Below, in pieces: positions 3,001-29,662 of a stretch of 64,000 bases of DNA. Each line of letters begins with the position of its first letter. The first letter of the stretch is position 1. Where the stretch lies: positions 96,001-160,000 of IMG/VR virus record IMGVR_UViG_3300033068_001847; one strand, written 5' to 3'. Made by a program: the position numbers and the translations under genes. Under the pieces are notes generated by a model, which saw only the letters and a program-made list of their open reading frames with translations, made no database searches and was not told the origin of the DNA. Origin of the DNA: a virus (lineage: Duplodnaviria > Caudoviricetes).

Positions 3001-4233
3001 ACCATCACGTTCTTTCTCTGCATTAATTACAACACTTTTAAGTTCAGTAAAGAACCTTTTAGCATCATTAACAATAATACTTAATATATTTGCAAGTGTT
3101 GGACCGCCTTTAAGTTCACTATAAACTAATTTAGTTACATTTTCATCTATTTGTTTTTGACGTTGATAAATAATTACATCATTCTTATCAATAACTTGAC
3201 GAATATTTTTATCTACATTAGTTAAATCTATAGAAAAAACTTTAACATATTGATCATTTGTGAATTCAATTACTGGTAAATTTTCATATGCTGGAATATC
3301 CTTAATTATTTTAACAGCTATATTATTTTCTTTGAAGAATGTTTTTTTATCACTGATCGCAGATAGTAAATTTTCATAAACTGTTTGGTTTGGGTAATGC
3401 TCTGTAGCTAATACTTTATACTTGTAACTTACATGTATTATATTACTATTATTTTTATCCCTATTTACATAGATCAAATTATTTTGTCCTGTTGTAATAT
3501 CAGCAACATTTTTAATATCACTTATAAACCTCTCTTGGTAATTATTGCAGACTTCTAGTAGCTGACTATTTTTAAATGTTATATCATTTAAAAATTTACT
3601 ATCCTCTGCCGTTGCTGTTTTAATAATTGTTGATAATTGATTTGATTTATTTTTAAGCTCCCAAAATGTATTTGTTGCACTATCATTTAATAAAGTATTT
3701 TCATTTAAATACGGTGCAACTTCTAAATAATCCACATATAAATCTGCTAGTGGTGCAAACGTCATACCTACAAAACTAGCACTGATCTCAAAACTATTAT
3801 TATTAACAAATTTGGTTGATTGTTTTACTAAATGTAATCTATATGTAACTGATTGTCCATAATACCCCTTTAATGTTAAATCAAAAATAGGTGGTGGCAT
3901 ATCAAATATCACTTGATATTTTGAATCATGAAAATTATTAAATAAAGCTTGTCCCCTAACATCTTCGAAAATAATATCTACTTGAGGTACGTAAGAAGAT
4001 GTTATTTTAAAATCAATACTTTTAATACCGAAATTCTCTTTATTATCAGTCCAATCAGTAGTAAATTCTCCATTACTATTTGCTCCAATAAAATTAATGA
4101 TCAGAGGTTTATCGTTATTTAATTTACCTAACCTATTTCTTTTGGTTACTTTAAGTTCGGCATAAAAACTAAGATCATCTAACTTAACACTCTCACCATT
4201 ACTAAAAACACTATGTGGATCAATATTTCCCAT
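1..4233 (-). CDS. Large baseplate hub / tail-associated protein with C-proximal lambda-type (GH104) muramidase domain; runs off the window edge
   Basis: Absent from the ORF track, consistent with its stop lying outside the window. ATG at 4233 (MGNIDPHSVF...). In-frame motifs KAFLDVIAFAEG (~555-520) and PSAAGRYQFL (420-391) are typical of phage-lambda-like lysozymes. Lies downstream of tape measure and baseplate genes. I did not check every codon by hand. Confidence 0.8.
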   Translation of the reverse strand, partial: MGNIDPHSVFSNGESVKLDDLSFYAELKVTKRNRLGKLNNDKPLIINFIGANSNGEFTTDWTDNKENFGIKSIDFKITSSYVPQVDIIFEDVRGQALFNNFHDSKYQVIFDMPPPIFDLTLKGYYGQSVTYRLHLVKQSTKFVNNNSFEISASFVGMTFAPLADLYVDYLEVAPYLNENTLLNDSATNTFWELKNKSNQLSTIIKTATAEDSKFLNDITFKNSQLLEVCNNYQERFISDIKNVADITTGQNNLIYVNRDKNNSNIIHVSYKYKVLATEHYPNQTVYENLLSAISDKKTFFKENNIAVKIIKDIPAYENLPVIEFTNDQYVKVFSIDLTNVDKNIRQVIDKNDVIIYQRQKQIDENVTKLVYSELKGGPTLANILSIIVNDAKRFFTELKSVVINAEKERDGNNDTSHGEEPKYAFPDYYVLDSNNKKVKSIPKDPTWAEVVFVNNYINAKMKVSALNKASSDINFEPNTNEEYTFVPINPFDSILDVPNEYLDATKDNILYKIIYRGLILLNITNNFDSLAGRNGKILVNAHAKLEAMNILTVLQGKEKLLDAFIQQINSPDFKFNSIPILDNLKQVSRDSIDYKYNSDTLFKIRNSSDFDAYLGTPVLKESTELVSTPVGNYNEYIVKYNDTLKKLNKDNGYLSQYNVPFFIDQKMKGGFVNKSEFVSGEVFYFKETTGLSSATSFDNLMEKMFIDNLLQIDNHIIPPFDIPNFKRTSAIHEIPHFVLIAWGFILSNLNVITQKYPVYKTNVTKWQKIPDFIKTQFISYYTNFKNKYNNLYSDPTGTFMLKLKNAEKEKGNRIDEFFATDFVIEFTEIKYMSVGDYRMFNYNNNYNPDFRDDFTLYNEYFNVLKSELLVSKNIVKKEINNQKSEVKSKIDNADLKTELYYNFKSFVDKWMLNTPDEIDNMLSMENFLMVDRSFNNIGEDVMLDLSPLYSTQTSADTSIYTLLLNLLTKNNFEFFALPSYINYNESGLLWSNSNIQTVFGTNHNVNTKTKPKFICMYIGGTSSQLDINISNGDSHKNDSDDYDKIVDLKTDAVQAFNVDFGTHNQSFFYGLELDQLEYKETNESIILLDKIANSDQNSSTTASNSLFNTYQQRSYTATFSMMGNMMIQPTMYFDLKNVAMFKGTYLILEVNHKITPNSISSVFKGVRVPKVPKPYVTNYTIVSNIDIGSASGLNGGSVYNSGLNTGKPKKDIDLIGRNTNPVLTNKEKAFLDVIAFAEGVLLIKSDNGYNTLYGGTLINPWNRDYKLGHNFPSAAGRYQFLQSSWLKGGKNEPFNPTNQDKRAIDYIRESFNKYKLDLNNVNENNFRKYLDTVANTWASLPYYNSHGLKPKYKGWTLGESFYGTTNNATEGKSQRPRGNTLQKLWSVFTMALGYYEGTIVNKEGLTKDQIY

Positions 4234-4235
4234 TA

Positions 4236-4553
4236 TTAATTATTTTTTGAATAGTTTTGAGATTTATCTAAATATTCATTTATTGTTTCAGTTAATGGAT
4301 AAGGTATTCTAATGATAGTATTATTTGGTATATCATTTTCCATAATATATTGAGGGTTTGCTAAAAGAATTAACCATCCGTATGTTGGATTAGAATAAAA
4401 ATCATAACTTAATTTATCCATTCTATCCTCATTAGTTTTCCATACTACTTTCTTATCGCTACCTTTAGAATCTAACTTTATGAATGGAACAGTACTTTGT
4501 TCTCCGTTTAAACTAAACGGTTTGTATCGAGAAAAAGATAAGTTATTAATCAT
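4236..4553 (-). CDS. Baseplate wedge / LysM-like tail protein (gp53-like)
   Basis: RMDKLSYDFY...GWLILLANP...IIRIP motif; baseplate context. Confidence 0.65.
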   Translation of the reverse strand: MINNLSFSRYKPFSLNGEQSTVPFIKLDSKGSDKKVVWKTNEDRMDKLSYDFYSNPTYGWLILLANPQYIMENDIPNNTIIRIPYPLTETINEYLDKSQNYSKNN

Positions 4554-4568
4554 TTATTTTAAATCTTA

Positions 4569-6986
4569 TTATATTTTATTGTAGACTTCAGTATTAGCAT
4601 AGAAATTATAATCTAATGCTGTTTGAAGTTTATTAACTGGACCACTAAGGCTACTACCACCTATTATGTTACAAGACATGTTCACTCTACATAACATCGG
4701 TTGCATACCTATACCTTCTGGATTCATATCCCATAATAGTGGTTCGTAATCAAAAGATATATTATTAATAATTATTTTAGTGTTAAAAAAATCACCTATT
4801 CTCAATACACAAACAGGTGGTCTACCAAATATTCCGTTTGAAACTGTACTACCTGAGAGTACAGTGCCTTGCTTTAAACACTGCTGTAAAAAAGTCACTC
4901 TAGTATTTAAATCCTCTGGAGTTTGGGAATGGAATACAGGGTGAAAATATTTAATATTATCACTATATGTTTTAAGTAAATTATCAGTTAACTCATCATT
5001 AGCTGTTGCTAATAATACATCTTCGTTTTGATTATATCTTTCGAAATAAAACTCATCAGAAGGATTAATAACTACTTCAGGTATTACTATTGGATCTTCA
5101 AATAAAGAACGTTGTTGATTTTTAATATCGGTTATAGTTGTATTCAATTTAGGATTTGCTTTAAGATATACATAACTTCTTCTATCCACAACATCTTCAT
5201 TTACTGTATTAACAGTAGAATTTTGATTTTTAGCTCTTTCCTCTCCGTAGAAATTAATAGTGAACTTATCATTTTTATATTGATCTAATGTAGGTTGTAC
5301 TCCATCAGAAAATACTTTATCATATGATCTCAATTTATAATTATCAATATTCGTTAAATTTGATTCAATTCTATTATATAAACTCTTACCTCTAAAAAAT
5401 GATAATAATTTATTATATTTTGCATTATCAAGTTTACTTGTGAATGTATCTATTACCACTTGATATTTCTTACCTTCTTCTGTATTTAAGAAAGCAATAA
5501 GATCATTAATACGGGCATTGAAATCATTAATAGCTTTTTGACCAGTACCAACATTATTATCTTGTGTTAACGTAGTCTTTAAAGTATAATCATTATTATC
5601 ATAATAATACTTCAATGCTTGATTAAGAGCAAAGGGGTTATTACCTGATGATAATGGTTTTGGTTTTTCAACTGGTCTTTCCTCTACCTTCTTAACATCT
5701 ATTTTACTTTTCTCCGTTGTTGATAAATTTTTAGTTAAAATATTATCTTGTTTAAAGAATTTATTATGTTCGTTGTTACTCTTATTTTTCCAACTAAATT
5801 TATTTAATTCAGAAGGGTAATCAGCAATTAGAACAAAACTAATTACACATTGACGTTCAGAACCATTATATGTATATATCGGTTCACTTCTACCAATGAA
5901 AGTTACTTTATCCCATCCTGCACTACTATTCTCACTTATTTGAAGATCATATGGTGCAAACCACATAACTCTTCCACCATTTGCTCCATGTTCTGAAGGT
6001 TTGATATCAATCTTAGCATCTTTGTAGGCTAAATTCTCAATTGAGAACATTAAATTTTTAACATCAGTTTCATTAATTGGTGCAATATTTGGGAATACAG
6101 TTTGTAATACTGAATTAGTTCCAGCATAACCATGATTATATTTCATTAAATCAGATGTTGAACCATACTTATTTTGTTTAGTAAATACTCGTAAGAATTT
6201 ACTTCCACTGTCATCAGTAGTAGTTCCACCACCTTTAGGAATTAACTTCATTTCACCATCATCACCAATATGTTTGAAAATCTTTGCAGTTGGATTGAGT
6301 TTATCCCCCGGATATTGAATAGATGGATCTGCTGGAATACCATCAGATAAACTATTTTGATTTAATAACTCATTAGTTTTAAATAATAAAGATTCTTCAA
6401 TTTGACCTTTCTTGATGCTTGCAGCATCCATATCATCTTTACCGTATTGACTATCTAATTGATCTCTATATTGATTTCTATTGATATTTTTTTGATATTC
6501 ATCTTGATATCCTTCACCTCTATTCTTTTTTAACCAATTATTACTATCTTCGTGACTGAAGTTTGAACCAATGAATGGTACGGGATTCACATCCCGTTGA
6601 TAACCTAACATAACTTGAACTAGATCAGAAAATGATTGTTTTTCTTTTCCTGATATATTCCAGTAGTTAGCTGGTTTGTTGATGTTAAAATCAATTATAT
6701 TTGATTGAGTAACACTTGGTAGTAGATTTGTACGTAGGTTTTGACCTACTCTTACAGCTAAAGCTTTAGCTAATTCTCTGTTAGCTACTTGTTGGATTGG
6801 AGTATTAGGTAATAATACTCTACTTAGTAGTGTATTTGAGAAATCAAAAGAATTGTTTGTAGCTAAACTACCAATAGTTGAAATAGTATTATTTAACCTA
6901 TTATTATCCAAACTGTATACATTCTTAGGATTGTATAGATTTAAAGATTCTAATATATTTAAATATGGTTGAGATGGTATAGGCAT
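4569..6986 (-). CDS. Baseplate / tail-tube-initiator-like structural protein
   Basis: 805 aa; FIGRSEPIYTY and GRPPVCVLRIGDFFNTKIII motifs of tube-fold baseplate proteins; late motif at 7005-7012. Confidence 0.55.
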   Translation of the reverse strand: MPIPSQPYLNILESLNLYNPKNVYSLDNNRLNNTISTIGSLATNNSFDFSNTLLSRVLLPNTPIQQVANRELAKALAVRVGQNLRTNLLPSVTQSNIIDFNINKPANYWNISGKEKQSFSDLVQVMLGYQRDVNPVPFIGSNFSHEDSNNWLKKNRGEGYQDEYQKNINRNQYRDQLDSQYGKDDMDAASIKKGQIEESLLFKTNELLNQNSLSDGIPADPSIQYPGDKLNPTAKIFKHIGDDGEMKLIPKGGGTTTDDSGSKFLRVFTKQNKYGSTSDLMKYNHGYAGTNSVLQTVFPNIAPINETDVKNLMFSIENLAYKDAKIDIKPSEHGANGGRVMWFAPYDLQISENSSAGWDKVTFIGRSEPIYTYNGSERQCVISFVLIADYPSELNKFSWKNKSNNEHNKFFKQDNILTKNLSTTEKSKIDVKKVEERPVEKPKPLSSGNNPFALNQALKYYYDNNDYTLKTTLTQDNNVGTGQKAINDFNARINDLIAFLNTEEGKKYQVVIDTFTSKLDNAKYNKLLSFFRGKSLYNRIESNLTNIDNYKLRSYDKVFSDGVQPTLDQYKNDKFTINFYGEERAKNQNSTVNTVNEDVVDRRSYVYLKANPKLNTTITDIKNQQRSLFEDPIVIPEVVINPSDEFYFERYNQNEDVLLATANDELTDNLLKTYSDNIKYFHPVFHSQTPEDLNTRVTFLQQCLKQGTVLSGSTVSNGIFGRPPVCVLRIGDFFNTKIIINNISFDYEPLLWDMNPEGIGMQPMLCRVNMSCNIIGGSSLSGPVNKLQTALDYNFYANTEVYNKI

Positions 6987-7258: not shown

Positions 7259-9763
7259 TTATGAAGCTGAACCTTTTCTAGCTCGTTCAATATGTAATGG
7301 TACTTGTTTACTCAACATTGAACTGACTTTTTGTCCATCTAGGTTAGCTGTAACATCAACCTGTAAGTTAATTTTTTCATCCTTGAATTTAACTTCAATT
7401 GCATCACCGAATATACTATTCAATGAATTCAATGCTGTTACCAGCGTACCAATACCTGATAATGATTCTGAAACAGCAATCAACTTATCTAATTTTTTAT
7501 CATTAATTTTCTCAATTGCGGAAGCTATATTATTAAATTGGGTTGCTGCTACTGTTAAACTATCAAAGTTAGCTCCACGTATCTTTTCACTGATATCACC
7601 AATTGAACCACTTAATTTATTTAATCCAATCCAAGCTAGTGGATTTGCAAATAATAAAGAAGTTGTACCTAGTCCAGCCATTGATAACATCAATGAATTC
7701 ATTCCCATGATCAATTTAGGATCAGTAACTTTTGATAAACTATCAAACATATCACCAAATCCCTGTGCCATGAAACCTATACCTGCTGCTGCAATACCAA
7801 CACCAGCACCAATTAATCCTATACCAGCACCAAATGCTACTAATGGACCTGCTGCAATTGGTCCAAGGGTTGCCATCACTAGAGCTAAACCACCTAACGT
7901 TACACCTAATATTGCTAATGAAACGTTTATACCAATAAGTTGATCACTATTCAATCCTTTAAAAGCTTCAGCCATTGCTGAAATACCTTTAGTTGCTAAC
8001 CAAATACCACCACCAACCATAACAACAGCAGCACCATAAGCTAATATATTCTTCCAAGCTCCACCTGCTGCTTTTCCATTTTCAGCAGCTTCAGTAGCGA
8101 ACGTAGTTGATTTACCAGTAAATCTACCAGCAGCATCTCTAGCTGGTCCAGAAGATCTACCTTTAGTAGTACCAAATAATTTTCCTGATAATAATCCCGG
8201 AGCTAATGTTTTAAGTACACCAAATATTGGAGATAATGTACCAATTAAAGCACTTGCAGCCATTAATCCAAGACCTAATTTAAATGCTCCTTTACCAAAT
8301 TCTGATTGAACAATACCATTGATTGATTTAAGTAATGGTAGAAATAAAGTTTTCATTTCGTTGATAGTATTTTTAAGTACTTCATCAAACGCCTGAGCAT
8401 CTTTAGCCCTTTCTTCCAATGATTTATTAGATTCCATCAGAGCTTTTACTTGTCCTAATGATAATTGCCTGATATCTCTAAATTCATTCGGTGATATCTG
8501 TACTTTGAAATTACCATCCTTCTGTATTTGAGCAACACCCTCAATGAATTCTTTTTCTTCTTTACCTAATTTTCCACCAAGTAAACCACCGATAGCATTT
8601 ACTTTAGCTCCTTGTTTAGCTTGTTTGATTAAATCCTCAAAGGACATACCTGTTGCATCAGCAGCAAGTCTTAATCTATTTAAATCACCAGCTTGTATTT
8701 CAAATTCACCAGTAGTTTTATTAAAATTAGCCATACCCTTGGTAAGACTTTGCATAGTCTTAGTAAATCCTTCTGCATCGTTTCTAGCTTGATATAAGAG
8801 ACTAAAAGGATCTGTCTGAGCAAACTTACCACCTATAACTTGGAGTTGAGCAGCCATGTCCACAGCACCCTCTAAAGAGTTAGCTTTATCCATAGCATTG
8901 AACACACTAGTCATATCAACTTTAAACTTCGTTGCAAACATAGACATCTTCTTTAATCCTTCAATACCACCTTTAAAAACGTATTGTTGAGATCTATCAA
9001 AATTGTCGTTTAATGCATCAATTACTTTAGTAGCTGATACTCCGAATTTAACAGAAGATTTAACAGCATCTTCATAAAAATCTTTAACTTGAGTTACTGA
9101 TTTACCGATAAGGTCAAACTTACCAACCATTTTACCTGCAATATCAGTACCCATTTTAGTACCTTTACCAATTGCTATAATATTTTTAAGATTTTCTTTG
9201 GATAATAGAACACTATTACCCATTTCATCCGTATATGATGTTTGTATTTTACCTAAATCTTCAAAAGAAACACCCATGCTCATAGCATAGCTAGAAGCTT
9301 CCATTAAATTACTGGTCATTAATTTAGCTCGATCACCAGTTAATCCTAATGTTTGATTTACATTTTTAAATGATTTATCTGCTTCAGCTAGAAAATTAAT
9401 AATATTCGGTAAGAATCCAGCAAAAGTTGCCATTGACAACTTAGTAAATTCCTTATATGACATAACTAGGATACTTGCATTTTTAATCTCCTGTCTTTGT
9501 GCCTGAAGTAATCTATTTTTTAAATCTAATTGGCGTTTGAATTCTTTATAGATTTTGTCATTTTGTGACATACCGTTTGTGACAAGTAAAGACATAGCTT
9601 TCTCAATCTCAAAGATTTCTTCCTCAGCATTCTTTAAATTACGTTTAGCATTCAGGTAACCAGTAAATTCATTGTTAATACTTCGATTAATCTCAAGTAT
9701 TTGTTTTTGTATTTCAAGTTCTTCCTGTACACTTCTTAATATATCACTACTTTTTTTAGCCAT
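7259..9763 (-). CDS. Tape measure protein
   Basis: 834 aa, helical Ala/Gly-rich with hydrophobic C-terminal segments; sits between tube/chaperone and baseplate genes. Confidence 0.8.
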   Translation of the reverse strand: MAKKSSDILRSVQEELEIQKQILEINRSINNEFTGYLNAKRNLKNAEEEIFEIEKAMSLLVTNGMSQNDKIYKEFKRQLDLKNRLLQAQRQEIKNASILVMSYKEFTKLSMATFAGFLPNIINFLAEADKSFKNVNQTLGLTGDRAKLMTSNLMEASSYAMSMGVSFEDLGKIQTSYTDEMGNSVLLSKENLKNIIAIGKGTKMGTDIAGKMVGKFDLIGKSVTQVKDFYEDAVKSSVKFGVSATKVIDALNDNFDRSQQYVFKGGIEGLKKMSMFATKFKVDMTSVFNAMDKANSLEGAVDMAAQLQVIGGKFAQTDPFSLLYQARNDAEGFTKTMQSLTKGMANFNKTTGEFEIQAGDLNRLRLAADATGMSFEDLIKQAKQGAKVNAIGGLLGGKLGKEEKEFIEGVAQIQKDGNFKVQISPNEFRDIRQLSLGQVKALMESNKSLEERAKDAQAFDEVLKNTINEMKTLFLPLLKSINGIVQSEFGKGAFKLGLGLMAASALIGTLSPIFGVLKTLAPGLLSGKLFGTTKGRSSGPARDAAGRFTGKSTTFATEAAENGKAAGGAWKNILAYGAAVVMVGGGIWLATKGISAMAEAFKGLNSDQLIGINVSLAILGVTLGGLALVMATLGPIAAGPLVAFGAGIGLIGAGVGIAAAGIGFMAQGFGDMFDSLSKVTDPKLIMGMNSLMLSMAGLGTTSLLFANPLAWIGLNKLSGSIGDISEKIRGANFDSLTVAATQFNNIASAIEKINDKKLDKLIAVSESLSGIGTLVTALNSLNSIFGDAIEVKFKDEKINLQVDVTANLDGQKVSSMLSKQVPLHIERARKGSAS

Positions 9764-18881: not shown

Positions 18882-20003
18882 TTAGTGTATGTAAATTCCA
18901 AGTGGTGAATAACCTAATATTTTATTTAATTGTTCAGCTTCATTTGCACGTTTGGTTAATTGTGTTTCATAGCTTAGTCCATCTAATCTTTCTTTTAGTT
19001 CAGCTTTTAACGCTTCAACTTCTGATCTACCATCTTCCAGAAGGAAAGAATAATCCATTTGGATAGAAGCATCAGTTATATCAATATTACCACTATATTT
19101 ACCACGAATTAATCCTAATAATTTTTTAGCTTCAGCTAGTAAATAACGTCTGATCCATGTTTTAGAACTTGCATTTAATTTACCCCATTTAAGATTCTCA
19201 ATTGGAACATCTGAAGGTCTGGTAATAACAGCTAAATCCGCATTATCACTTAAACATTTACTCTTGTTTTTAGAATTTGTTTCATAATAAAAATACCAAA
19301 CTTGCATTCCATCTGCATTACTAGAAAAATAACTTCCTAGACCTCTTGGTTGATATTTACCTCCCGGTACTGGATATAAGTGTAATATTTTACTTCCATC
19401 TGCTTTTCCAGTAATTCTATAAGATAATTCACTCTTCATGATTTTATTCTTCATAGATCTATCAGAAGCTGCAAGTAAAGATGAATAAGCTGGAGCAACA
19501 TAACCAAACATAGTACCACCGTAACCCCACCCCCATTCATTTGCAGACCAACCTACAGGGTTTAAAGTATCATAAGCCATAAAAGATGGAGTCGCCCAAA
19601 TAACTTCATTAACTTCTCTACCTTTAGGTATTGGATAAAATTGTGTATTAGCACTTAGTATTATACAGTCTTTCTTTAATTCCCAACTTTCACCTGCTGG
19701 AGCATTAGTACCTAAACCTACCTGTCTTGAATATGCATAAGAAAATGATTTAGCAAAACTTAAATCCTTAGTAGAGAAAGCAACATTAAAATCAGAATCT
19801 TCAATACTTAATCCAGATAATGTAGACCATTGCTGATCAACTAACCAATCATTAATATATTGGGAATAATCTTCTAATGCATTACAGAATAAAGTATCTA
19901 ATTGTTCATCTGTAAGTTCTACATTACGAACACCCATACCTAATTGATGATATATGTTTTTAAATAATTTTTCTCTCTCTGGTGCGGTTATTAATGTTGC
20001 CAT
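18882..20003 (-). CDS. Neck / head-tail adaptor protein (T4 gp13-like)
   Basis: LG...VELTDEQLD N-terminus; WIRRYLLAEAKKLLGLIRGKY C-terminal motif. Confidence 0.8.
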   Translation of the reverse strand: MATLITAPEREKLFKNIYHQLGMGVRNVELTDEQLDTLFCNALEDYSQYINDWLVDQQWSTLSGLSIEDSDFNVAFSTKDLSFAKSFSYAYSRQVGLGTNAPAGESWELKKDCIILSANTQFYPIPKGREVNEVIWATPSFMAYDTLNPVGWSANEWGWGYGGTMFGYVAPAYSSLLAASDRSMKNKIMKSELSYRITGKADGSKILHLYPVPGGKYQPRGLGSYFSSNADGMQVWYFYYETNSKNKSKCLSDNADLAVITRPSDVPIENLKWGKLNASSKTWIRRYLLAEAKKLLGLIRGKYSGNIDITDASIQMDYSFLLEDGRSEVEALKAELKERLDGLSYETQLTKRANEAEQLNKILGYSPLGIYIH

Positions 20004-20108
20004 TTATGTACTTTATCATAAATAGTTTTATACTTGATATTTATTTAACTATTGAATATATTTTGTAATGAGTGAGGTACATCCCACCAACATTAAAATA
20101 TAAATAAA

Positions 20109-20759
20109 ATGAAAAGTAGAATTAACTTAGATGTTGACTATGCAGGTCAACCATGTATTAAAATTAATCTTCAATCAAGTGAAGATATAAGAGATAAAAC
20201 CTTAACAAGGTTACTCAATCAAGTTGAATATCCTAATAATAACGGTTACAAAATAAAATTCCCGAAAAATATCTTTGTTATCGAAGAGGATTTTGATAAT
20301 AGTAGCTGTTCAAGTGGTTATGGTGAACCGGGAATAACTAAAACTCTAGTACCTATAGATCGAATAGTAGCTCAAAAATTAGGGATGATAGATCCACGCA
20401 CTTCACATTGTGATAATACTCCAGTTCGTTCTTCAATAATTGATGATATAAATAGAGTAAGAGACTTATATAGATTACTAAATTTAGAAACGTCAGATAT
20501 TGATAGAATTGAGAATATTTTGGAAACTGTACCACATTTTAAAAATAAATTAAATAAATACACATTAATCGAATATCCACAGTTTAATACTAAAGTTTTA
20601 TCTTATATTAATGAAAATGATTTCAGTGAACATATATTGATAGATAATGGAAAAATTATGAGTAAATATGATTTTGAAGAGAATTATTTAGGTAAGGTAA
20701 ATCTATCAGATACCCAAGGTTTTAATAACTCACAACAAATATCTGAAAGAATAGAATAA
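20109..20759 (+). CDS. Hypothetical protein
   Basis: 216-aa ORF with A-rich upstream region. Confidence 0.6.
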   Translation: MKSRINLDVDYAGQPCIKINLQSSEDIRDKTLTRLLNQVEYPNNNGYKIKFPKNIFVIEEDFDNSSCSSGYGEPGITKTLVPIDRIVAQKLGMIDPRTSHCDNTPVRSSIIDDINRVRDLYRLLNLETSDIDRIENILETVPHFKNKLNKYTLIEYPQFNTKVLSYINENDFSEHILIDNGKIMSKYDFEENYLGKVNLSDTQGFNNSQQISERIE

Positions 20760-20762
20760 AAA

Positions 20763-20793
20763 TTTGTAAATTAGAATATTTATACTATATTTG
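20763..20793 (+). promoter_or_regulatory. Bacteroidota sigma70-type promoter for tRNA-Glu/tRNA-Leu unit
   Basis: TTTG 20763-66, 19-nt spacer, TATATTTG 20786-93. Confidence 0.8.
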
Positions 20794-20866
20794 CATCAGT
20801 CTAAACATAATTGAAGTTACTCACTTGAATATTGAAACAATACTTTAATTGATTATTAGACATTTT

Positions 20867-20938
20867 GGACCGTTCGTCTAGGGGTTAGGACACGACATTT
20901 TCGATGTTGGAACAGGGGTTCGATTCCCCTACGGTCTA
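20867..20938 (+). tRNA. trnE: tRNA-Glu (TTC)
   Basis: Acceptor GGACCGT/ACGGTCT; anticodon arm CGACA-TTTTCGA-TGTTG; T arm AGGGG-TTCGATT-CCCCT; no encoded CCA. Confidence 0.93.
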
Positions 20939-20953
20939 CATATTATTGAATGT

Positions 20954-21184
20954 ATGAAATTACGATCAGCACAACAATTACATATCGAATGTTCAGTTGA
21001 AGAACTACAACAATTTATGATTGAAGAATTTAAAAAGAAAGGTTTTCTTGTTGGTGCAGATGATGTTAAAGTTATTAATTCAAATTTCATAGAGAAAGAT
21101 ACTACAGAATATGGTGATCACTTCCCATCTTCAAAAGTGGTTGGGTTAGAAATAACTATTGAATATGATGTAAAAGAACAATAA
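20954..21184 (+). CDS. Hypothetical protein between tRNAs
   Basis: 76-aa ORF. Confidence 0.55.
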   Translation: MKLRSAQQLHIECSVEELQQFMIEEFKKKGFLVGADDVKVINSNFIEKDTTEYGDHFPSSKVVGLEITIEYDVKEQ

Positions 21185-21281
21185 TTAATTTTTAAAAAGG
21201 GGAATGTTATACTCCGAATACGGAAAGCAAGAAAAGATAACACTCACTTGCGCTATTAGTTATTCTAAATATTAATTATTT

Positions 21282-21361
21282 GCTCGAATGGTGGAATTGG
21301 TAGACACGCAGGACTTAAAATCCTGTCCGAAAGGGTGCGAGTTCGATTCTCGCTTCGAGTA
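21282..21361 (+). tRNA. trnL: tRNA-Leu (TAA)
   Basis: GCTCGAA/TTCGAGT acceptor; CAGGA-CTTAAAA-TCCTG anticodon arm; variable arm; GTTCGATT T loop. Confidence 0.93.
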
Positions 21362-21389
21362 CTAAAAAATTTACTAGATATTTATGATA

Positions 21390-21632
21390 ATGAAAACGTT
21401 ATCAGAACAAATATATAGGATGAATGAATTAGCAGGAGTTATTGTTGAAGCAAATAAAACTCCTTGTCAAACACCAGATTCAACATTTCATACAGAAGTA
21501 AAAGATAATAAGATAACTTGTAGTGTAGATCTACCAATGGATTTAAATCTATCACCAGCAGATGCTAAAATATTAGAAACAAACATTCATAATGCAATGG
21601 AATTAGTTTTAGCCCCATATTTTAAAAAATAA
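21390..21632 (+). CDS. Small late protein (MKTLSEQIYRMNELAG...)
   Basis: TATTTAT late motif at 21379-85 on the + strand; likely start 21390. Confidence 0.6.
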   Translation: MKTLSEQIYRMNELAGVIVEANKTPCQTPDSTFHTEVKDNKITCSVDLPMDLNLSPADAKILETNIHNAMELVLAPYFKK

Positions 21633-21675
21633 TAACACTGATAATCAACAAGTTATAAAATAAATATAAATAAAG

Positions 21676-21706
21676 TTTGCAAATTTAAAATATTTACTTA
21701 CATTTG
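21676..21706 (+). promoter_or_regulatory. Bacteroidota sigma70-type promoter driving leader peptide and tRNA array
   Basis: TTTG 21676-79, 19-nt spacer, TACATTTG 21699-706; matches TTTG-N19-21-TAnnTTTG. Confidence 0.85.
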
Positions 21707-21726
21707 TACTATATATAATTAATAAA

Positions 21727-21834
21727 ATGAAAAATTTAAATACATATCACCGCTCTAGTTCGCTGCAACCGTATCAACACAGTTGCCCTGAAGTGGGTGC
21801 GTTAATATGTAAAGGAGGTGGAAGTACTATTTAA
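21727..21834 (+). CDS. Putative attenuator leader peptide, 35 aa (MKNLNTYHRSSSLQPYQHSCPEVGALICKGGGSTI)
   Basis: ATG after A-rich AATAAA; below the ORF-track size cutoff; codons 7-21 correspond to the nine downstream tRNAs; followed by a terminator. Confidence 0.8.
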   Translation: MKNLNTYHRSSSLQPYQHSCPEVGALICKGGGSTI

Positions 21835-21897
21835 ATACTGAAACACAATATATAAAGATGCACCCCAAGGATAATAGGATTCTTGGGGTTTTTCTTT
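21741..21897 (+). promoter_or_regulatory. Transcription attenuator (alternative 1:2, 2:3 antiterminator, 3:4 terminator)
   Basis: 1:2 = TACATAT-CACC (21741-51) with GGTG...ATATGTA (21796-811). 2:3 = GGGTGCGTT..TATGT (21795-810) with ATATA..GATGCACCC (21850-65). 3:4 = terminator. Confidence 0.75.
21862..21897 (+). terminator. Intrinsic terminator between leader and tRNA array
   Basis: ACCCCAAGGAT / ATTCTTGGGGT stem (21862-72/21879-89), then TTTTCTTT. Confidence 0.85.
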
Positions 21898-21914
21898 GGA
21901 AGAAACTTTTAAAT

Positions 21915-21989
21915 GACTATATGGCTGAGTGGTCAAAGGCAACGGTCTGCAAAACCGTAAAACCGTTGGTTCAAATCCAACTATAGTCT
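21915..21989 (+). tRNA. trnC: tRNA-Cys (GCA)
   Basis: GACTATA/TATAGTC acceptor; ACGGT-CTGCAAA-ACCGT; U73 discriminator. Confidence 0.93.
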
Positions 21990-22000
21990 CAGAAGAATAA

Positions 22001-22073
22001 CGGGTAGTAGGGAAGTTGGTATCCCGCCACATTTGGGATGTGGAGATCGCAGGTTCGAGTCCTGCTTACCCGA
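22001..22073 (+). tRNA. trnP: tRNA-Pro (TGG)
   Basis: CGGGTAG/TTACCCG; CCACA-TTTGGGA-TGTGG; GCAGG-TTCGAGT-CCTGC. Confidence 0.94.
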
Positions 22074-22096
22074 CTGGTTATGGGTTCACAATAGAC

Positions 22097-22105
22097 GTTC
22101 TTTGA
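22097..22105 (+). promoter_or_regulatory. boxA-like antitermination element (GTTCTTTGA)
   Basis: Resembles the rrn boxA core; lies in the Pro-Ser spacer. Confidence 0.4.
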
Positions 22106-22119
22106 ATGGAATTGTACTT

Positions 22120-22202
22120 GGAAGATTGGCAGAGTGGTCGATTGCGCTAGTCTTGAAAACTAGAGGATGAAAGTCCCAAAGGTTCGAATCCTTTATCTTC
22201 CG
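22120..22202 (+). tRNA. trnS: tRNA-Ser (TGA)
   Basis: GGAAGAT/ATCTTCC; CTAGT-CTTGAAA-ACTAG; long variable arm; G73. Confidence 0.94.
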
Positions 22203-22207
22203 CAAAC

Positions 22208-22321
22208 ATAAAAGGTTACCCTGCTTGTTCCGTATGGGGTTATAAATGTGTATAAGTTAACGGAACTCCTGTGGTGTTGCAGCCTAAAAATTGCACTAAA
22301 TATACTGAACAGACCTTTTAT
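22208..22321 (+). ncRNA. Candidate structured ncRNA within tRNA array (unassigned)
   Basis: Closing stem ATAAAAGGT/ACCTTTTAT; internal stems GTTCCGT/ACGGAAC and TGCAG/TTGCA; not a cloverleaf. Confidence 0.4.
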
Positions 22322-22341
22322 CTTTATAAAAAATAGAAATA

Positions 22342-22509
22342 ATGAATAAAAATGAAAAAAAGAAACAGAAATTAAAAGAACGTATTAATGCTTTGGAGCA
22401 GATCGTATTGTTATCATTAACTAAAAAAAGTTCGAATGAAACAGAAATTAATGTACCAGCATATCAACGACAAATAAATGATCTCAAAAAAGAATTGAGA
22501 GATTTATAA
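22342..22509 (+). CDS. Small coiled-coil hypothetical protein (55 aa)
   Basis: MNKNEKKKQKLKERINALE...QINDLKKELRDL; below ORF-track cutoff. Confidence 0.55.
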   Translation: MNKNEKKKQKLKERINALEQIVLLSLTKKSSNETEINVPAYQRQINDLKKELRDL

Positions 22510-22515
22510 TAAAAG

Positions 22516-22596
22516 GGGAGTGTTCCAGAGCGGTCAAATGGGACGGACTGTAAATCCGTTACTTCGGTTTCGTAGGTTCGAATCCTTCCACTCCCA
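22516..22596 (+). tRNA. trnY: tRNA-Tyr (GTA)
   Basis: GGGAGTG/CACTCCC; ACGGA-CTGTAAA-TCCGT; variable arm. Confidence 0.93.
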
Positions 22597-22601
22597 CAAT
22601 T

Positions 22602-22673
22602 AGTCTATTAGTTCAACGGATAGAATACCTGACTACGGATCAGGTGATAGGAGTTCGAATCTTCTATGGACTA
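22602..22673 (+). tRNA. trnR: tRNA-Arg (ACG)
   Basis: AGTCTAT/ATGGACT; CCTGA-CTACGGA-TCAGG. Confidence 0.92.
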
Positions 22674-22680
22674 CAAGAAT

Positions 22681-22760
22681 GCCCTTGTGACTTATGCAAA
22701 CTGGTACAGCTACGAGCCTTAGAACCTCGGTTTTTGAGAGTTCGAATCTCTCCAAGGGTA
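22681..22760 (+). tRNA. trnL: tRNA-Leu (TAG), atypical
   Basis: GCCCTTG/CAAGGGT acceptor; CGAGC-CTTAGAA-CCTCG (one C-C mismatch); GAGAG-TTCGAAT-CTCTC; enlarged D region; short variable loop. Confidence 0.8.
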
Positions 22761-22771
22761 CTTAAAATAAA

Positions 22772-22963
22772 ATGAAAATGATAACAGATATCAGATATAA
22801 CGAAGATGGTAAATTATATGCAAAATTATTAGGACATATAGATATTTACGGAACTGACTTAAATGATTTAAGAACAGCAGCTAGAGAAGCGTTTACATGT
22901 TTCTGTATAATTGCTGAAACTCATGGTCAGGGACTACAGCAGGAATTAGAAGGTTTAATCTAA
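22772..22963 (+). CDS. Small hypothetical protein (weak HicB-N-like pattern)
   Basis: 63-aa ORF; DGKLYA...GTDLNDLRTAAREA spacing recalls HicB N-terminal domains. Confidence 0.5.
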   Translation: MKMITDIRYNEDGKLYAKLLGHIDIYGTDLNDLRTAAREAFTCFCIIAETHGQGLQQELEGLI

Positions 22964-22968
22964 TATTT

Positions 22969-23042
22969 TGTTCTGTAGTGTAACTGGTTAACACGTCTGA
23001 TTTTGGTTCAGAAGATTCTAAGTTCGAACCTTAGCAGAACAA
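22969..23042 (+). tRNA. trnQ: tRNA-Gln (TTG)
   Basis: TGTTCTG/CAGAACA; TCTGA-TTTTGGT-TCAGA. Confidence 0.93.
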
Positions 23043-23104
23043 CGGGTTAGACTGTTAATAATTCATAGACTGTCATAAAAACATGGAGCGTAGAATTATA
23101 ATAT

Positions 23105-23178
23105 GGTAAATGTAGCTTAATTGGTAGAGCATCAGCTTGTGGCGTTGAGAGGTGGGGGTTCGATTCCCCTCGTTTACC
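23105..23178 (+). tRNA. trnH: tRNA-His (GTG)
   Basis: G-1:C73 pair; TCAGC-TTGTGGC-GTTGA; GGGGG-TTCGATT-CCCCT. Confidence 0.93.
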
Positions 23179-23185
23179 CAAAATT

Positions 23186-23268
23186 GGAGAATTGTCAGAG
23201 CGGTCTATCGTGCTTCTTTGCTAAAGAAGTGTGTGAAAGCACCACAGGTTCGAATCCTGTATTCTCCG
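23186..23268 (+). tRNA. trnS: tRNA-Ser (GCT)
   Basis: GGAGAAT/ATTCTCC; CTTCT-TTGCTAA-AGAAG; long variable arm; G73. Confidence 0.93.
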
Positions 23269-23285
23269 CTTAATTACCACAAATG

Positions 23286-23314
23286 TGCGGAGAATGTATC
23301 ACTTATTCTCCGCA
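23286..23314. terminator. Hairpin between convergent tRNA array and late genes
   Basis: TGCGGAGAAT/ATTCTCCGCA 10-bp stem; weak U-tracts. Confidence 0.5.
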
Positions 23315-23321
23315 TTAAATT

Positions 23322-24791
23322 TTAAGTTATAGGAAAACGATTATAACTAGCCATTGGTATAGAAGAATTACTTACAGTATCCCCATTCTGATATTTATAA
23401 GTTAATTTATCGGTTGCGCTGACAGTATTTGTACATTGTAATGTCCATGTAGTACCTGTACCAGAAATACCAGTAACTGGATTATCTGTAACACCTGTTA
23501 CATCTGTTACCACATATGCTTCATATAATGTTTGTACCATCGGAGAATCATAAACTAAAAGTACGGTAGTCCCACTAGCAGTTGCAGAAGTGATTTGTGG
23601 GAGTACAACATCTGTATTAGGATCAATTATAAAAGGATTTTCTGCATACATATTTATTAACCCTGTAGCACTATTAAATTTTACCTCAGCATTAGGAACA
23701 TTAGATTCTACTGTAACACTGATAATAGATGCGTCTGCATTCTGTACAGTAAAGGATGTATTAAAATAAACCAAATGTCTTTCTATTCCACTATATGATA
23801 AATAAGTATATAGTTTATTACCTACTATCTTGTATTGTTTATAAACACCCCTTCTAACTAATTCATAATCAAGAGCTTCTTGTGCTGTATAAATACCTGC
23901 ATTTTCATAATTAGCATGATCTTTAATTATATTACACATTGTGTGAAAGTTAGTAAGAGTATCATCCTCCCCAAGTATACCATGATAAAAATATGGCATA
24001 TATCCAAAAGCATCCCCTATACCAGTACAAGCAGCATAATGGGTATTAACTTGAGTTTCAAAATCATCAATGGCGGTTTGATTAATAGTATTACCGACAT
24101 AATATCTATAATATAGATGTCTTGTGGTATTCATTAAAGTAGGAAACCATCTATTACTAAAACCATAACCATCATCCATACCTGCTACACCCCAAGTACT
24201 CATCCAAATAGGAACATAATTAAGTGGACCTGATGCAGCATAACCAGCATCAGCACTTGGAACTACTCCCGTAGTAGCTAATAATCCAAATTTCTCCCAA
24301 AACTTTTTAGTGTTTAGGGTAATCTCACTATATAAATTAAATCCACCATGATTATAACCATGATTTGTTGGATAACATAATCTATGACCTATTACAATTG
24401 GGTTACCAGTAGTTTCTTTAGAAAATATAGGAATTAATTGTGACCACTTTGCAGCATTAGGATTACCAGAATCTTCATCATGGTCTGGATTAGCATTAAG
24501 AGCTATATTAAATTTAGCTGGTCTTTGATTTCCACAACCATCTGAATAAGTCCAAAGAGGGTAAGTATTACCATCTGCTGTTTCTACACCTTGTAAGTAT
24601 TTATGTAAATAAGTATTGTCTGATGGACCAGCATCATCAGTATATGGTATAAATCCAGTCGTCTTACCTTCTGGCATCTTATTATGTGATAAGACTACAG
24701 AAGGATTAGGTGGTGTATCAAATTCAGTTATAATAGTTATAAGTTGACTATTTTTAACTACTGGTATTTCAAAATTACCTTCTATATTCAT
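23322..24791 (-). CDS. Polysaccharide deacetylase-like (NodB/CE4-type) protein with C-terminal beta-sandwich domain
   Basis: YTDDAGP resembles TFDDGP and NHGYNH resembles HxxxH; Thr/Val-rich C-terminus; in a late operon. Confidence 0.5.
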   Translation of the reverse strand: MNIEGNFEIPVVKNSQLITIITEFDTPPNPSVVLSHNKMPEGKTTGFIPYTDDAGPSDNTYLHKYLQGVETADGNTYPLWTYSDGCGNQRPAKFNIALNANPDHDEDSGNPNAAKWSQLIPIFSKETTGNPIVIGHRLCYPTNHGYNHGGFNLYSEITLNTKKFWEKFGLLATTGVVPSADAGYAASGPLNYVPIWMSTWGVAGMDDGYGFSNRWFPTLMNTTRHLYYRYYVGNTINQTAIDDFETQVNTHYAACTGIGDAFGYMPYFYHGILGEDDTLTNFHTMCNIIKDHANYENAGIYTAQEALDYELVRRGVYKQYKIVGNKLYTYLSYSGIERHLVYFNTSFTVQNADASIISVTVESNVPNAEVKFNSATGLINMYAENPFIIDPNTDVVLPQITSATASGTTVLLVYDSPMVQTLYEAYVVTDVTGVTDNPVTGISGTGTTWTLQCTNTVSATDKLTYKYQNGDTVSNSSIPMASYNRFPIT

Positions 24792-25843
24792 TATGGTATT
24801 AAAATAGCTCCAAGAGATATTAAGTTATGAATTTCTGCTGGTATTTGTTCTGAATAGAATTTAATGTAAAGATCAGCTACACCTCTAACTACAGTACCAT
24901 GACTATCCCAAGTACTACCACCATCAGGAGATACTTCATAATAAATATAGTCAGCATCAATTCTCATTCTGAGTTTTAATAAAACTCCAGCAGTATAGTC
25001 AGTTGTTGCATTACTATTACCAGTACCATTTTTTACAGATATTCTATCATTACCCCAATTGAATGCAATAGCACTCAATGAGTTACCCGGTGTTACTGCT
25101 GTATCTCTGTTAGGTGATAGAGAAGCCCATAGATTTTGTCCCGGTTCTGTACCATCTATATCAAACTGTAACCAACCATTTACACCAACAGGGAAATAGT
25201 AATTTGCTCTACCTGCTGCATAAATAGAATTTTGACTTCTTACATTATTAGTAGTATCTCCTATCGTTAATTGAACAAAGTTACCAACATCATAAGCGGT
25301 AAATAAATCAATATCTTGTGTAACAGCTACAAAAACCTCACTATTTAATACATAATCAGAAGCATTACGAATATCATCAACAGCTTTAATACGTATACCC
25401 ACAGTACCTATAGCAGCATCAACATTACCAACTTCAATATATAAATTCCCATTAACATCTTCCAATACAGTTTTTTCGATTAATGAACCTCCAATATTAA
25501 TAAAACCTTCATAATCATCTACATTTGGAAATTCAGGGTTTTTAATAACATCACCAAAAATACCTAAATCATCATCAACACTACCACCAGTTGGTGCTGC
25601 TGGATTTAATAATAAAATTATTATACTTGACCCATTGTATGTATAAGCTAAATCATTACTTCCTTGAAACCCTAAAGGTATAATAGGATTTCCCTCTGTA
25701 CCATCTCCGCTAAAATATAAGCTTGATAATATACTACCACTACCGCCTGAACCAACAATTATTTGATCAGGATTAACATTATTATTTGGAGTTAATTCTG
25801 GATCATTACTATTAAAATTAAATGATGCACCTTGTTCTTTCAT
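24791..25843 (-). CDS. Putative fibre / decoration protein B
   Basis: Beta-rich; N-terminal ~33 aa nearly identical to the upstream gene; probable start ATG 25843. Confidence 0.5.
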   Translation of the reverse strand: MKEQGASFNFNSNDPELTPNNNVNPDQIIVGSGGSGSILSSLYFSGDGTEGNPIIPLGFQGSNDLAYTYNGSSIIILLLNPAAPTGGSVDDDLGIFGDVIKNPEFPNVDDYEGFINIGGSLIEKTVLEDVNGNLYIEVGNVDAAIGTVGIRIKAVDDIRNASDYVLNSEVFVAVTQDIDLFTAYDVGNFVQLTIGDTTNNVRSQNSIYAAGRANYYFPVGVNGWLQFDIDGTEPGQNLWASLSPNRDTAVTPGNSLSAIAFNWGNDRISVKNGTGNSNATTDYTAGVLLKLRMRIDADYIYYEVSPDGGSTWDSHGTVVRGVADLYIKFYSEQIPAEIHNLISLGAILIP

Positions 25844-27079: not shown

Positions 27080-27111
27080 TTTGTAAATTAAAAAATTTAA
27101 TACTATATTTG
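27080..27111 (+). promoter_or_regulatory. Bacteroidota sigma70-type promoter
   Basis: TTTG 27080-83, 20-nt spacer, TATATTTG 27104-11. Confidence 0.8.
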
Positions 27112-27118
27112 CCATGTT

Positions 27119-27754
27119 ATGAAAGAGTATTTATATAAATATAAAAAAACATATCATTTAGACTTTTCAGAATCAATTACCAGTGATGATAAGATATTGA
27201 AAAGTGTAGATCACTTCCTTGGTAAAAGAATTATTGTGACTGAAAAGATGGATGGAGAATGTACATCTGTTTATACTAATTACTATCATGCCCGTTCATT
27301 GGAATCAGCAAATCATCCTTCCCAAAATCTAATCAAAGGATATTGGGCAGAACGACAATACTTAATACCTGAAGGTTGGCGAGTATGTGGTGAAAATTTA
27401 TATGCACAACATTCAATTATATATGATAATCTTGATGCTTATTTTTATTGTTTTAATACTTGGAATGATAAGAATGAATGTTTATCTTATGATGAAACTT
27501 TAGAATGGTGTGAGTTATTAAATATTGTACATGTACCAGTTTTATATGATGGGATATTTGATTATGATCTCGTTAAAAAGATTTATTTAGATTTAAATAA
27601 AGATTTACATGAGGGTATTGTAATTAGATTAGCAGATTCATTTCATTATAAAGATTTCAGCAAATCATTAGCTAAAGCGGTAAGAAAAAATCATGTTACT
27701 ACAGATGAACATTGGTCTAAACAAGTTATTATACCAAATAAATTAAAACAGTAA
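27119..27754 (+). CDS. ATP-dependent RNA ligase (RNA_ligase family)
   Basis: Motif I TEKMDGE, GENLYAQHSI, EGIVIR, KAVR. Confidence 0.85.
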   Translation: MKEYLYKYKKTYHLDFSESITSDDKILKSVDHFLGKRIIVTEKMDGECTSVYTNYYHARSLESANHPSQNLIKGYWAERQYLIPEGWRVCGENLYAQHSIIYDNLDAYFYCFNTWNDKNECLSYDETLEWCELLNIVHVPVLYDGIFDYDLVKKIYLDLNKDLHEGIVIRLADSFHYKDFSKSLAKAVRKNHVTTDEHWSKQVIIPNKLKQ

Positions 27755-28744: not shown

Positions 28745-29662
28745 ATGAGAAAGAATAAAATCGTAAGAGTATTAATTGGACCTCCAGCCAGTGGTAAAAC
28801 TACATGGACTAAACAGTTCTTGTTGAGAAACCGTGATTGGGTGTCAGTGAATCGTGATGCCTTTCGGTTTATGTTCAGAGATGAACCTACACCTGAGCCA
28901 CGAGTAGAGGATCTTATAACTGAAATGCAAGCTGAAGCTATTGTTAAAGCTCTAAATAAAGGACTTAACGTAATAGTAGATAATACTAATTTAAGACATA
29001 AATATTTAAATGAAATTATTCAACTAGTTCAATTTAAAGCAGATGTTGAATTTCAAATATTTGATGCACCATTACATGTATGTCAGAAACGAGATAAGGA
29101 ACGTGCTAAATCAGTAGGTGATGAAGTTGTTAATAAAATGCACAACCAGTATAAAAACATCATTGATAGTTTTGGCTTTGAGAACCGTTCTAAGCGACCT
29201 TCATACGAAGATAGGTTTATTCCTCTTGTACAAGATCAAACACTCCCACAAGCTGTTATATTTGATATAGACGGTACAATAGCTTTGATGGGAAGAAGAA
29301 GTGAATATGATTGGAATAAAGTAGATGTAGATGATCCTCATGATATAGTTATTGAGCAAATAAAACTTCACCAAGATAAAGGGCGTAAGATTTTACTGGT
29401 TTCAGGTAGGGATGAAGAAGCTAGGGAAAAAACACTCTACTGGCTTGAGTATTATAATGTTTATTTTGATGAATTATTAATGCGTCCTAAAGATGATATG
29501 AGAAAAGATTATATTATTAAAAAAGAGATTTTTAATAATCAAATCAAAGACCGATATAATGTATGGGCTGTGTATGATGATCGCTTACAAGTAATTAAAA
29601 AAGCTTGGTTTGAATTAGGATTATTTTGTTTCAATGTTAATCAAGGGATGAAAGATTTTTAA
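28745..29662 (+). CDS. pseT: Polynucleotide 5'-kinase / 3'-phosphatase (T4 PseT-like)
   Basis: P-loop GPPASGKTT and NRD in the kinase domain; HAD DIDGT, SGR, DDR in the phosphatase domain. Confidence 0.92.
   Translation: MRKNKIVRVLIGPPASGKTTWTKQFLLRNRDWVSVNRDAFRFMFRDEPTPEPRVEDLITEMQAEAIVKALNKGLNVIVDNTNLRHKYLNEIIQLVQFKADVEFQIFDAPLHVCQKRDKERAKSVGDEVVNKMHNQYKNIIDSFGFENRSKRPSYEDRFIPLVQDQTLPQAVIFDIDGTIALMGRRSEYDWNKVDVDDPHDIVIEQIKLHQDKGRKILLVSGRDEEAREKTLYWLEYYNVYFDELLMRPKDDMRKDYIIKKEIFNNQIKDRYNVWAVYDDRLQVIKKAWFELGLFCFNVNQGMKDF

Follow-up and report, generated by a model that had tools for sequence, protein, structure and literature searches.

A Candidate Leader-Peptide Attenuator with Codons Matching Its tRNA Genes in Front of a Phage tRNA Operon

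Introduction

What decides when a phage transcribes the tRNA genes that it carries? The question is raised by a tRNA island in a T4-like phage, represented by the IMG/VR record IMGVR_UViG_3300033068_001847. We analyzed bases 96001–160000 of this record, a stretch of 64,000 nucleotides that is referred to below as the window and whose numbering is used unless another contig is named. Within the island, a short open reading frame (ORF) and an intrinsic terminator precede a row of tRNA genes, and 15 consecutive codons of the ORF are all of the kinds that these tRNAs read. We consider it probable, from comparative and folding analysis, that this arrangement places a phage tRNA operon under a transcription attenuator of the ribosome-mediated, leader-peptide type.

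Leader-peptide attenuation is a textbook mechanism for the control of amino-acid biosynthesis genes and a few related genes. Phage tRNA arrays, such as those of T5, vibriophages and mycobacteriophages, are regarded as a means of keeping translation going once the host is shut off or tRNAs are cleaved, and the accounts known to us treat their expression as constitutive or temporal. The array in the window carries the same cargo of phage-borne tRNAs. An earlier reading of this sequence (the original prediction) had proposed that the leader senses the very tRNAs encoded behind it. This proposal is supported by the covariation of leader codons with arrays, by the covariation of the antiterminator and by the matching of leaders to tRNA blocks in jumbo phages, all described below.

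Results

Leader and tRNA Array in the Window

In the window, a promoter-like site is followed by an AU-rich, unstructured start, a short ORF, a long hairpin, a terminator and the gene for tRNA-Cys. The main elements are:

21676–21706, plus strand: promoter-like site P2, matching a Bacteroidota-type two-box pattern, about 20 bases 5′ of the leader start codon
21727–21834, plus strand: candidate leader ORF, 35 codons and a stop codon
21745–21789, plus strand: control stretch, codons 7–21 of the leader, all read by the downstream array
21862–21899, plus strand: intrinsic terminator, a stem-loop (21862–21889) with a T-rich tail

The leader ORF was present as predicted, and the terminator, previously placed at 21862–21897, was recovered as a stem-loop with a T run. 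It ends 16 bases 5′ of tRNA-Cys, a gap too short for another promoter.

The control stretch encodes Tyr, His, Arg, Ser, Ser, Ser, Leu, Gln, Pro, Tyr, Gln, His, Ser, Cys and Pro. All 15 codons belong to the set of 25 read by the nine downstream tRNAs, and all nine tRNA classes are sampled. This set accounts for 23% of the codons in the long ORFs of the record and for 30% of all trinucleotides. When the 184-kb record was scanned in six frames (368,418 codon positions), the run of 15 in the leader was the single longest and the only one that sampled all nine classes; the runners-up, of 13, 13 and 12 codons, covered only four to six. The complete match between leader and array, a central claim of the original prediction, is thus borne out. 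Many of the leader codons, for example CGC, TGC, CTG and TCG, are among the rarest in the genes of the phage.

Ten tRNA genes were called alike by ARAGORN and the Rfam tRNA model, two of them upstream and eight downstream of the leader. Together with one doubtful gene and the hairpin that closes the array, they are:

20867–20939, plus strand: tRNA-Glu (TTC), outside the attenuated block
21282–21362, plus strand: tRNA-Leu (TAA), outside the attenuated block
21915–21990, plus strand: tRNA-Cys (GCA)
22001–22074, plus strand: tRNA-Pro (TGG)
22120–22203, plus strand: tRNA-Ser (TGA)
22516–22597, plus strand: tRNA-Tyr (GTA)
22602–22674, plus strand: tRNA-Arg (ACG)
22681–22761, plus strand: tRNA-Leu (TAG)-like gene, degenerate, function doubtful, called at a relaxed threshold and aligned to relatives
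22969–23043, plus strand: tRNA-Gln (TTG)
23106–23179, plus strand: tRNA-His (GTG)
23186–23269, plus strand: tRNA-Ser (GCT)
23285–23315, plus strand: terminator-like hairpin closing the array; the adjoining gene is on the opposite strand

Of the array of nine tRNAs originally described, eight were confirmed together with their anticodons (Cys, Pro, Ser-TGA, Tyr, Arg, Gln, His and Ser-GCT). The exception was Leu-TAG, for which neither ARAGORN at default settings nor Rfam at E ≤ 1 gave a call. This gene aligns with sound Leu-TAG genes in the same slot of the relatives, and it has a 5-base insertion in the D-arm, a short variable arm and a C·C mismatch in the anticodon stem; these defects suggest that it may be decaying, perhaps dead. 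The original list was also incomplete, having missed tRNA-Glu and tRNA-Leu-TAA, which lie upstream behind a separate promoter-like site.

Leader Codons Follow the Array in Four Relatives

Relatives of the island were sought through homologues of gp13, the neck protein gene that flanks it, which form a graded series. Four contigs (L004, L005, L108 and L111), with gp13 54–73% identical to that of the window, were compared; several contigs from closer relatives stop short of the island, and the gp13 relatives in IMG/VR at ≤48% identity mostly have no tRNAs beside gp13. In each of the four, a short ORF, a long mid-ORF hairpin and a terminator lie directly 5′ of the first tRNA of the block. The ORFs have the same start, a similar length, an intact frame and the same first residues:

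L004, 8822–8920, minus strand: homologous leader ORF
L005, 7355–7444, minus strand: homologous leader ORF
L108, from 9809, minus strand: homologous leader ORF
L111, from 6992, minus strand: homologous leader ORF

The two-box pattern of P2 is kept at the homologous place in L004, L111 and L108, and in L005 it stands before a tRNA-Met gene. This gene (7467–7540, minus strand) is located between the promoter-like site and the leader ORF, so that the L005 leader would be translated from a transcript starting with a tRNA.

The leaders of the four relatives track their own arrays down to the level of isoacceptors, as had been set out beforehand as a test of the proposal. Between the window and L004, six adjacent control codons differ in amino acid, while 15 of 15 codons remain in the set and all nine classes are still sampled. 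L108 is without Arg-ACG and Leu-TAG, and its control stretch is without Arg or CTN codons; it alone has a Gln-CTG gene, and it alone uses CAG. In L111 alone is Leu-TAA found downstream of the leader, and in L111 alone does TTA occur (twice) in the array-read run. L005 has neither Ser-TGA nor a TCN codon. The control stretch was delimited by a fixed rule, starting at the Tyr codon that follows ACA and ending just before the first Gly codon; each genome's own array then reads its control codons in 73 of 79 cases across the five genomes. Of the 120 ways to assign leaders to arrays, the true one scored best, the sole tie being the exchange of the leaders of the window and L004, whose arrays are identical.

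Alternative Pairings of the Leader RNA

The leader RNA contains segments that can pair in alternative ways. In addition to the terminator, which is formed by segments 3 and 4, these are:

21741–21811, plus strand: hairpin 1:2, the predicted anti-antiterminator and possible pause hairpin, enclosing the control stretch (minimum-energy and centroid folds)
21787–21804, plus strand: core of segment 2, with segments 1 and 3 as alternative partners (duplex energy)
21855–21872, plus strand: segment 3, the bases just 5′ of the terminator plus its 5′ arm, common to antiterminator and terminator

The fold of 21712–21900 had a z-score of −3.4, and both hairpin 1:2 and the terminator were present in the minimum-energy fold of all five leaders (those of the window and the four relatives). 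The duplex between segments 2 and 3 has an energy of −18.2 kcal/mol, a value matched by 0.4% of shuffled sequences.

The switch was modeled by cutting the RNA before the 3′ arm of the terminator and making a ribosome-sized footprint unpairable on chosen codons. With the ribosome on control codons, segment 2 bound the 5′ arm of the terminator with a probability of 0.55–0.74 in the window and up to 0.98 in the relatives, giving a range of 0.55–0.98 across all five leaders. With the ribosome past the control stretch, the 5′ arm was mostly free. Its pairing climbed again at the last few codons before the stop codon in the window, L004 and L111, and at codons 25–31 in L108. Under the assumed footprint, segment 2 was freed by a stall at any of codons 7–17 of the window and over the bulk of the control stretches of the relatives.

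The terminator stems vary among the five genomes, and segment 2 varies with them. Covariation was judged from duplex energies of own and crossed pairs, the MAFFT alignment of the five leaders being out of structural register. The energies of the genomes' own 2:3 duplexes average −13.6 kcal/mol, compared to −8.5 kcal/mol for cross pairs, and the true assignment of segments 2 to segments 3 was the single best of 120.

Several Leader Types in Jumbo Phages

Larger and more distant relatives have 35–61 tRNAs called by ARAGORN in long regions. A blind scan for a short ORF followed by a terminator and then a tRNA found four leader–terminator units in each of three of these genomes (G002, G004 and G005). 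The leaders and the blocks behind them are:

Gln, Pro and His leader: before a block of Pro, His and Gln tRNAs (plus one Tyr-ATA call in G002)
Asp, Glu, Ala, Val, Leu and Trp leader: before a block of Asp, Glu, Val, Leu, Ala and Trp tRNAs
Tyr and Lys leader: before a block of Lys and Tyr tRNAs
Thr, Ser, Arg, Asn, Gly, Ile, Phe and Cys leader: before tRNAs of those identities (plus one Met-CAT call in G004)

In each of the three genomes, the pairing of leaders with their own blocks was the best of 24. A Phe, Gly and Asp leader was likewise found ahead of Asp, Phe and Gly tRNAs in contig L026. Stall-dependent capture of the 5′ arm of the terminator was seen in 7 of the 13 jumbo and L026 units, namely those with a correctly placed terminator; the other six, in which the automatic finder had mis-set the terminator, were left out. 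These leaders begin with common residues and have in common a motif of six bases at the foot of hairpin 1:2. This motif occurs in differing reading frames, indicating that it is conserved as RNA. The units resemble copies of a single module that have diverged and been retuned for each block.

The tRNA regions of G002, G004 and G005 end in a tRNA with a CTA anticodon (at 16907 in L121, near 12386 in L123 and near 5313 in L126, respectively), which would read the amber codon and hints at suppression or recoding of TAG. In L108, which belongs to a 388-kb relative, genes for aminoacyl-tRNA synthetase-like proteins, a ribosomal protein L12-like protein and an ART-PolyVal domain protein lie beside or within the tRNA region (1–6900).

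Surroundings of the Island and Database Searches

The source record is linear, with 184,209 bases and a G+C content of 29%, and its completeness was estimated by CheckV at 53%; more tRNA blocks with other leaders may therefore sit outside it. The island and its neighbors are:

18882–20003, minus strand: gp13 neck protein gene, left flank of the island (surrounded by gp23, sheath, gp19 and baseplate genes in the relatives)
20109–23315, plus strand: tRNA island, tRNA genes and small ORFs
20763–20793, plus strand: upstream promoter-like site P1, a match to the Bacteroidota-type two-box pattern
23322–24791, minus strand: next gene to the right of the island

P1 is closely similar to P2, and there is no plus-strand ORF between it and tRNA-Glu. 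It is predicted to drive tRNA-Glu, a 76-residue ORF, tRNA-Leu-TAA and an 82-residue ORF, with no leader ORF behind it. Small plus-strand ORFs of 55–82 amino acids lie between the tRNA genes at 20954–21184, 21384–21632, 22342–22509 and 22772–22963; any within the gated block would come under the same control as the tRNAs.

A BLAST search of deposited phage genomes gave no close relative of the island, only similarity of tRNA to tRNA. A scan of contigs from prokaryote genomes gave three distant loci, of which one, a jumbo contig, was useful. A search of IMG/VR and metagenome contigs with the conserved DNA pattern of the leader start brought up nothing but psaJ genes of plastids and unrelated ORFs. 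In algal plastid contigs (L009–L025), psaJ is a neighbor of trnP and trnW, and its start agrees with the first 22 bases of the leader ORF; we considered a relationship between psaJ and the leader and rejected it as coincidence. Among public sequencing runs, none recorded as RNA contained the stretch.

Discussion

From the elements described above, we infer that the leader is translated, that its translation and transcription are coupled, which way and how strongly the array would respond, and what in nature may lower the tRNA pool. Transcription would start at P2, and a ribosome would translate the leader as RNA polymerase nears the terminator. If the control stretch is decoded fast, the ribosome would pass over segment 2 to the stop codon, the terminator would form, and most transcripts would end before tRNA-Cys. 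If scarcity of the cognate charged tRNA slows decoding at any control codon, the ribosome would be parked on segment 1, segment 2 would pair with the 5′ arm of the terminator, and the array would be transcribed for want of a terminator. In the absence of a ribosome, hairpin 1:2 and the terminator would both form. Since the test codons are read by the very tRNAs that the operon yields, such a switch would constitute a negative feedback that matches phage tRNA supply to translational demand, and the tRNAs are probably made only when those codons are read slowly. In nature, the trigger may be host tRNAs decaying once the host is shut off, a phage codon usage poorly matched to the tRNAs of the host, a lack of amino acids, or tRNA-cutting defences.

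A number of observations weigh against this interpretation. In the footprint model, a stall at codons 18–21 (His, Ser, Cys and Pro) covers segment 2 instead of freeing it, and the only Cys codon may for this reason give no signal. The original prediction of an OR gate over all nine tRNAs would consequently hold for most of the control codons and is slightly overstated for the last three or four, the single Cys codon among them. Even in truncated RNA that carries no ribosome, the 5′ arm is paired to some extent (probability 0.35–0.77), so that the state without a ribosome is not cleanly separated. Equilibrium folding of the full-length RNA leaves the terminator of the window at a probability of at least 0.87 for any stall position. 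Because the terminator always wins at equilibrium there, the switch must be kinetic, as is also the case for the trp attenuator.

The promoter and array calls have weak points as well. The two-box pattern occurs in the window at chance level (4 observed, 3.5 expected), and the assignment of the originally predicted P2 as a promoter, although the site fits the pattern, hence rests on its position and its conservation in the relatives. Phage-specific promoters may also lie inside the array. The leader keeps one CTG codon even though the Leu-TAG gene of the window may be dead. L005 has a Cys codon with no Cys tRNA found and a His tRNA with no His codon, and its Tyr and Ser-GCT genes were identified by eye only. 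Moreover, the samples are small, and the agreement between leaders and arrays is in part inherited, since the closest relatives share ancestry.

The alternative that fares best is that the attenuator serves mainly as an inducible counter-defence, in which anticodon nucleases of the host or other tRNA-cutting immunity deplete particular tRNAs, ribosomes stall on the matching codons and the phage resupplies copies. The logic of the switch would be identical, and genes that could belong to such a response lie a few kb away:

27080–27111: promoter-like site, a third two-box match resembling the pair in the tRNA island, just before the RNA ligase gene
27227–27682: RNA ligase gene (PF09414)
29246–29647: PNKP gene (PF25109), 2 kb beyond the ligase
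L004, 5323–7121: RNA ligase and PNKP genes, abutting the array
L111, 874–1521: RNA ligase gene, near the array

The ligase and PNKP are predicted to be a T4-like tRNA repair set; in T4, Pnkp and Rnl1 repair tRNA that has been cut by PrrC. Their presence nearby is compatible with a history of tRNA damage and proves nothing. Against a mainly defensive role, there is no sequence link between the leader and the targets of nucleases, and no host or defence system is known for the phage. Furthermore, the gated blocks of the jumbo relatives together cover nearly all amino acids, which fits a general control of supply better than a reply to specific nucleases. We therefore regard this alternative as unlikely. 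If tRNA-cutting host defences do trigger the leader-gated operons, these would nevertheless act as an inducible counter-defence in addition.

Transcription of the array might instead be coupled to overall ribosome activity or amino-acid supply, with no specificity for the tRNAs in the array. Any leader-peptide attenuator would also react to amino-acid starvation and to a global slowing of elongation, and the sequence cannot separate a shortage of charged tRNA from a shortage of tRNA. For such a gate, however, the codons need not follow the array, yet they do so at the level of isoacceptors and across four leader types, which makes a non-specific gate very unlikely. It is hardly credible that the ORF encodes a small functional peptide or that the transcript is a small RNA, with an ordinary leaky terminator and a codon match that is a by-product or chance: a small RNA gene could likewise consist of a promoter, about 170 bases and a terminator, the region has a stable fold, and several relatives share the N-terminus and a Cys-Gly-Gly-like tail, but the amino acids of the control stretch are not conserved whereas their membership of the tRNA set is, differently composed leaders precede matching tRNA blocks within a single genome, the conserved bases at both ends of the ORF are explained by RNA pairing, with the hairpin-foot motif in other frames elsewhere, the 15-codon run is unique in the record, and no Rfam family matched.

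Attenuation by ribosome stalling on codons of the array is thus the reading that we prefer, and its closest parallels are the enterobacterial ilvGMEDA (Ile/Leu/Val) and thr (Thr/Ile) attenuators. In these, as in the switch proposed for the phage, a short leader is translated whose control codons stand for more than one amino acid, the RNA can form a 1:2 hairpin, a 2:3 antiterminator and a 3:4 intrinsic terminator, and a stalled ribosome leads to read-through. The phage system differs in regulating tRNAs rather than biosynthetic enzymes, so that the molecule sensed would be the product itself, and in sampling nine tRNA species mostly once or twice rather than having runs of one to three amino acids. 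It also differs in its phage setting and Bacteroidota-type promoter motifs, and there is no sequence relation. The trp, his, pheA and leu attenuators follow the same logic of three hairpins and, as proposed for the phage leader, a kinetic race of ribosome against polymerase, but each has tandem control codons for one amino acid and controls the biosynthesis of that amino acid. In the E. coli pheST attenuator (pheM leader), a gene of the translation apparatus is controlled by the supply of its cognate charged tRNA, as proposed for the phage leader; pheST, however, involves a synthetase rather than tRNA genes, and a single amino acid. In T-box riboswitches, as in the model proposed for the phage, tRNA status decides between terminator and antiterminator 5′ of translation-related genes, but the T-box binds uncharged tRNA directly, without a ribosome, whereas the phage leader is an ORF carrying codons.

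None of the Rfam leader families (Trp, His, Leu, Thr and others), nor the T-box, matched at E ≤ 1 in 19000–25000. The phage leader would work like these curated families and is, by sequence, a member of none. In full-text literature searches we found no description of leader-peptide or attenuation control of tRNA operons, tRNA arrays or phage tRNAs (jumbo phages included), in agreement with the original prediction, which knew of no attenuator controlling a tRNA operon. The idea of a leader attenuator before the E. coli tRNA-Phe genes was not borne out at pheV of MG1655, where the promoter lies directly before the tRNA. The phage leader appears to be a known mechanism in a new use, in which tRNA genes would be regulated through the decoding speed of the codons that they read. 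If this is true, it would be, to our knowledge, the first case in which translation itself exerts feedback control on tRNA supply.

Beyond the window, it is probable, judging from the multiple leader types, that throughout a clade of large and jumbo T4-like phages the tRNA genes are grouped by amino-acid class into operons, each under its own matching leader attenuator. This would amount to a self-tuning, demand-driven tRNA supply, of which the window would hold a compact version with a single leader. As compact natural devices with several inputs, the leaders could be used to sense tRNA pools and as a simple reporter of tRNA depletion, with which to probe whether phage tRNAs answer codon mismatch, host shut-off or tRNA-cutting immunity. 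They would also provide a direct read-out of which tRNAs a phage "worries about". If the proposed mechanism is correct, these phages would not just add tRNAs to their hosts, but would actively tune the decoding capacity of the cell.

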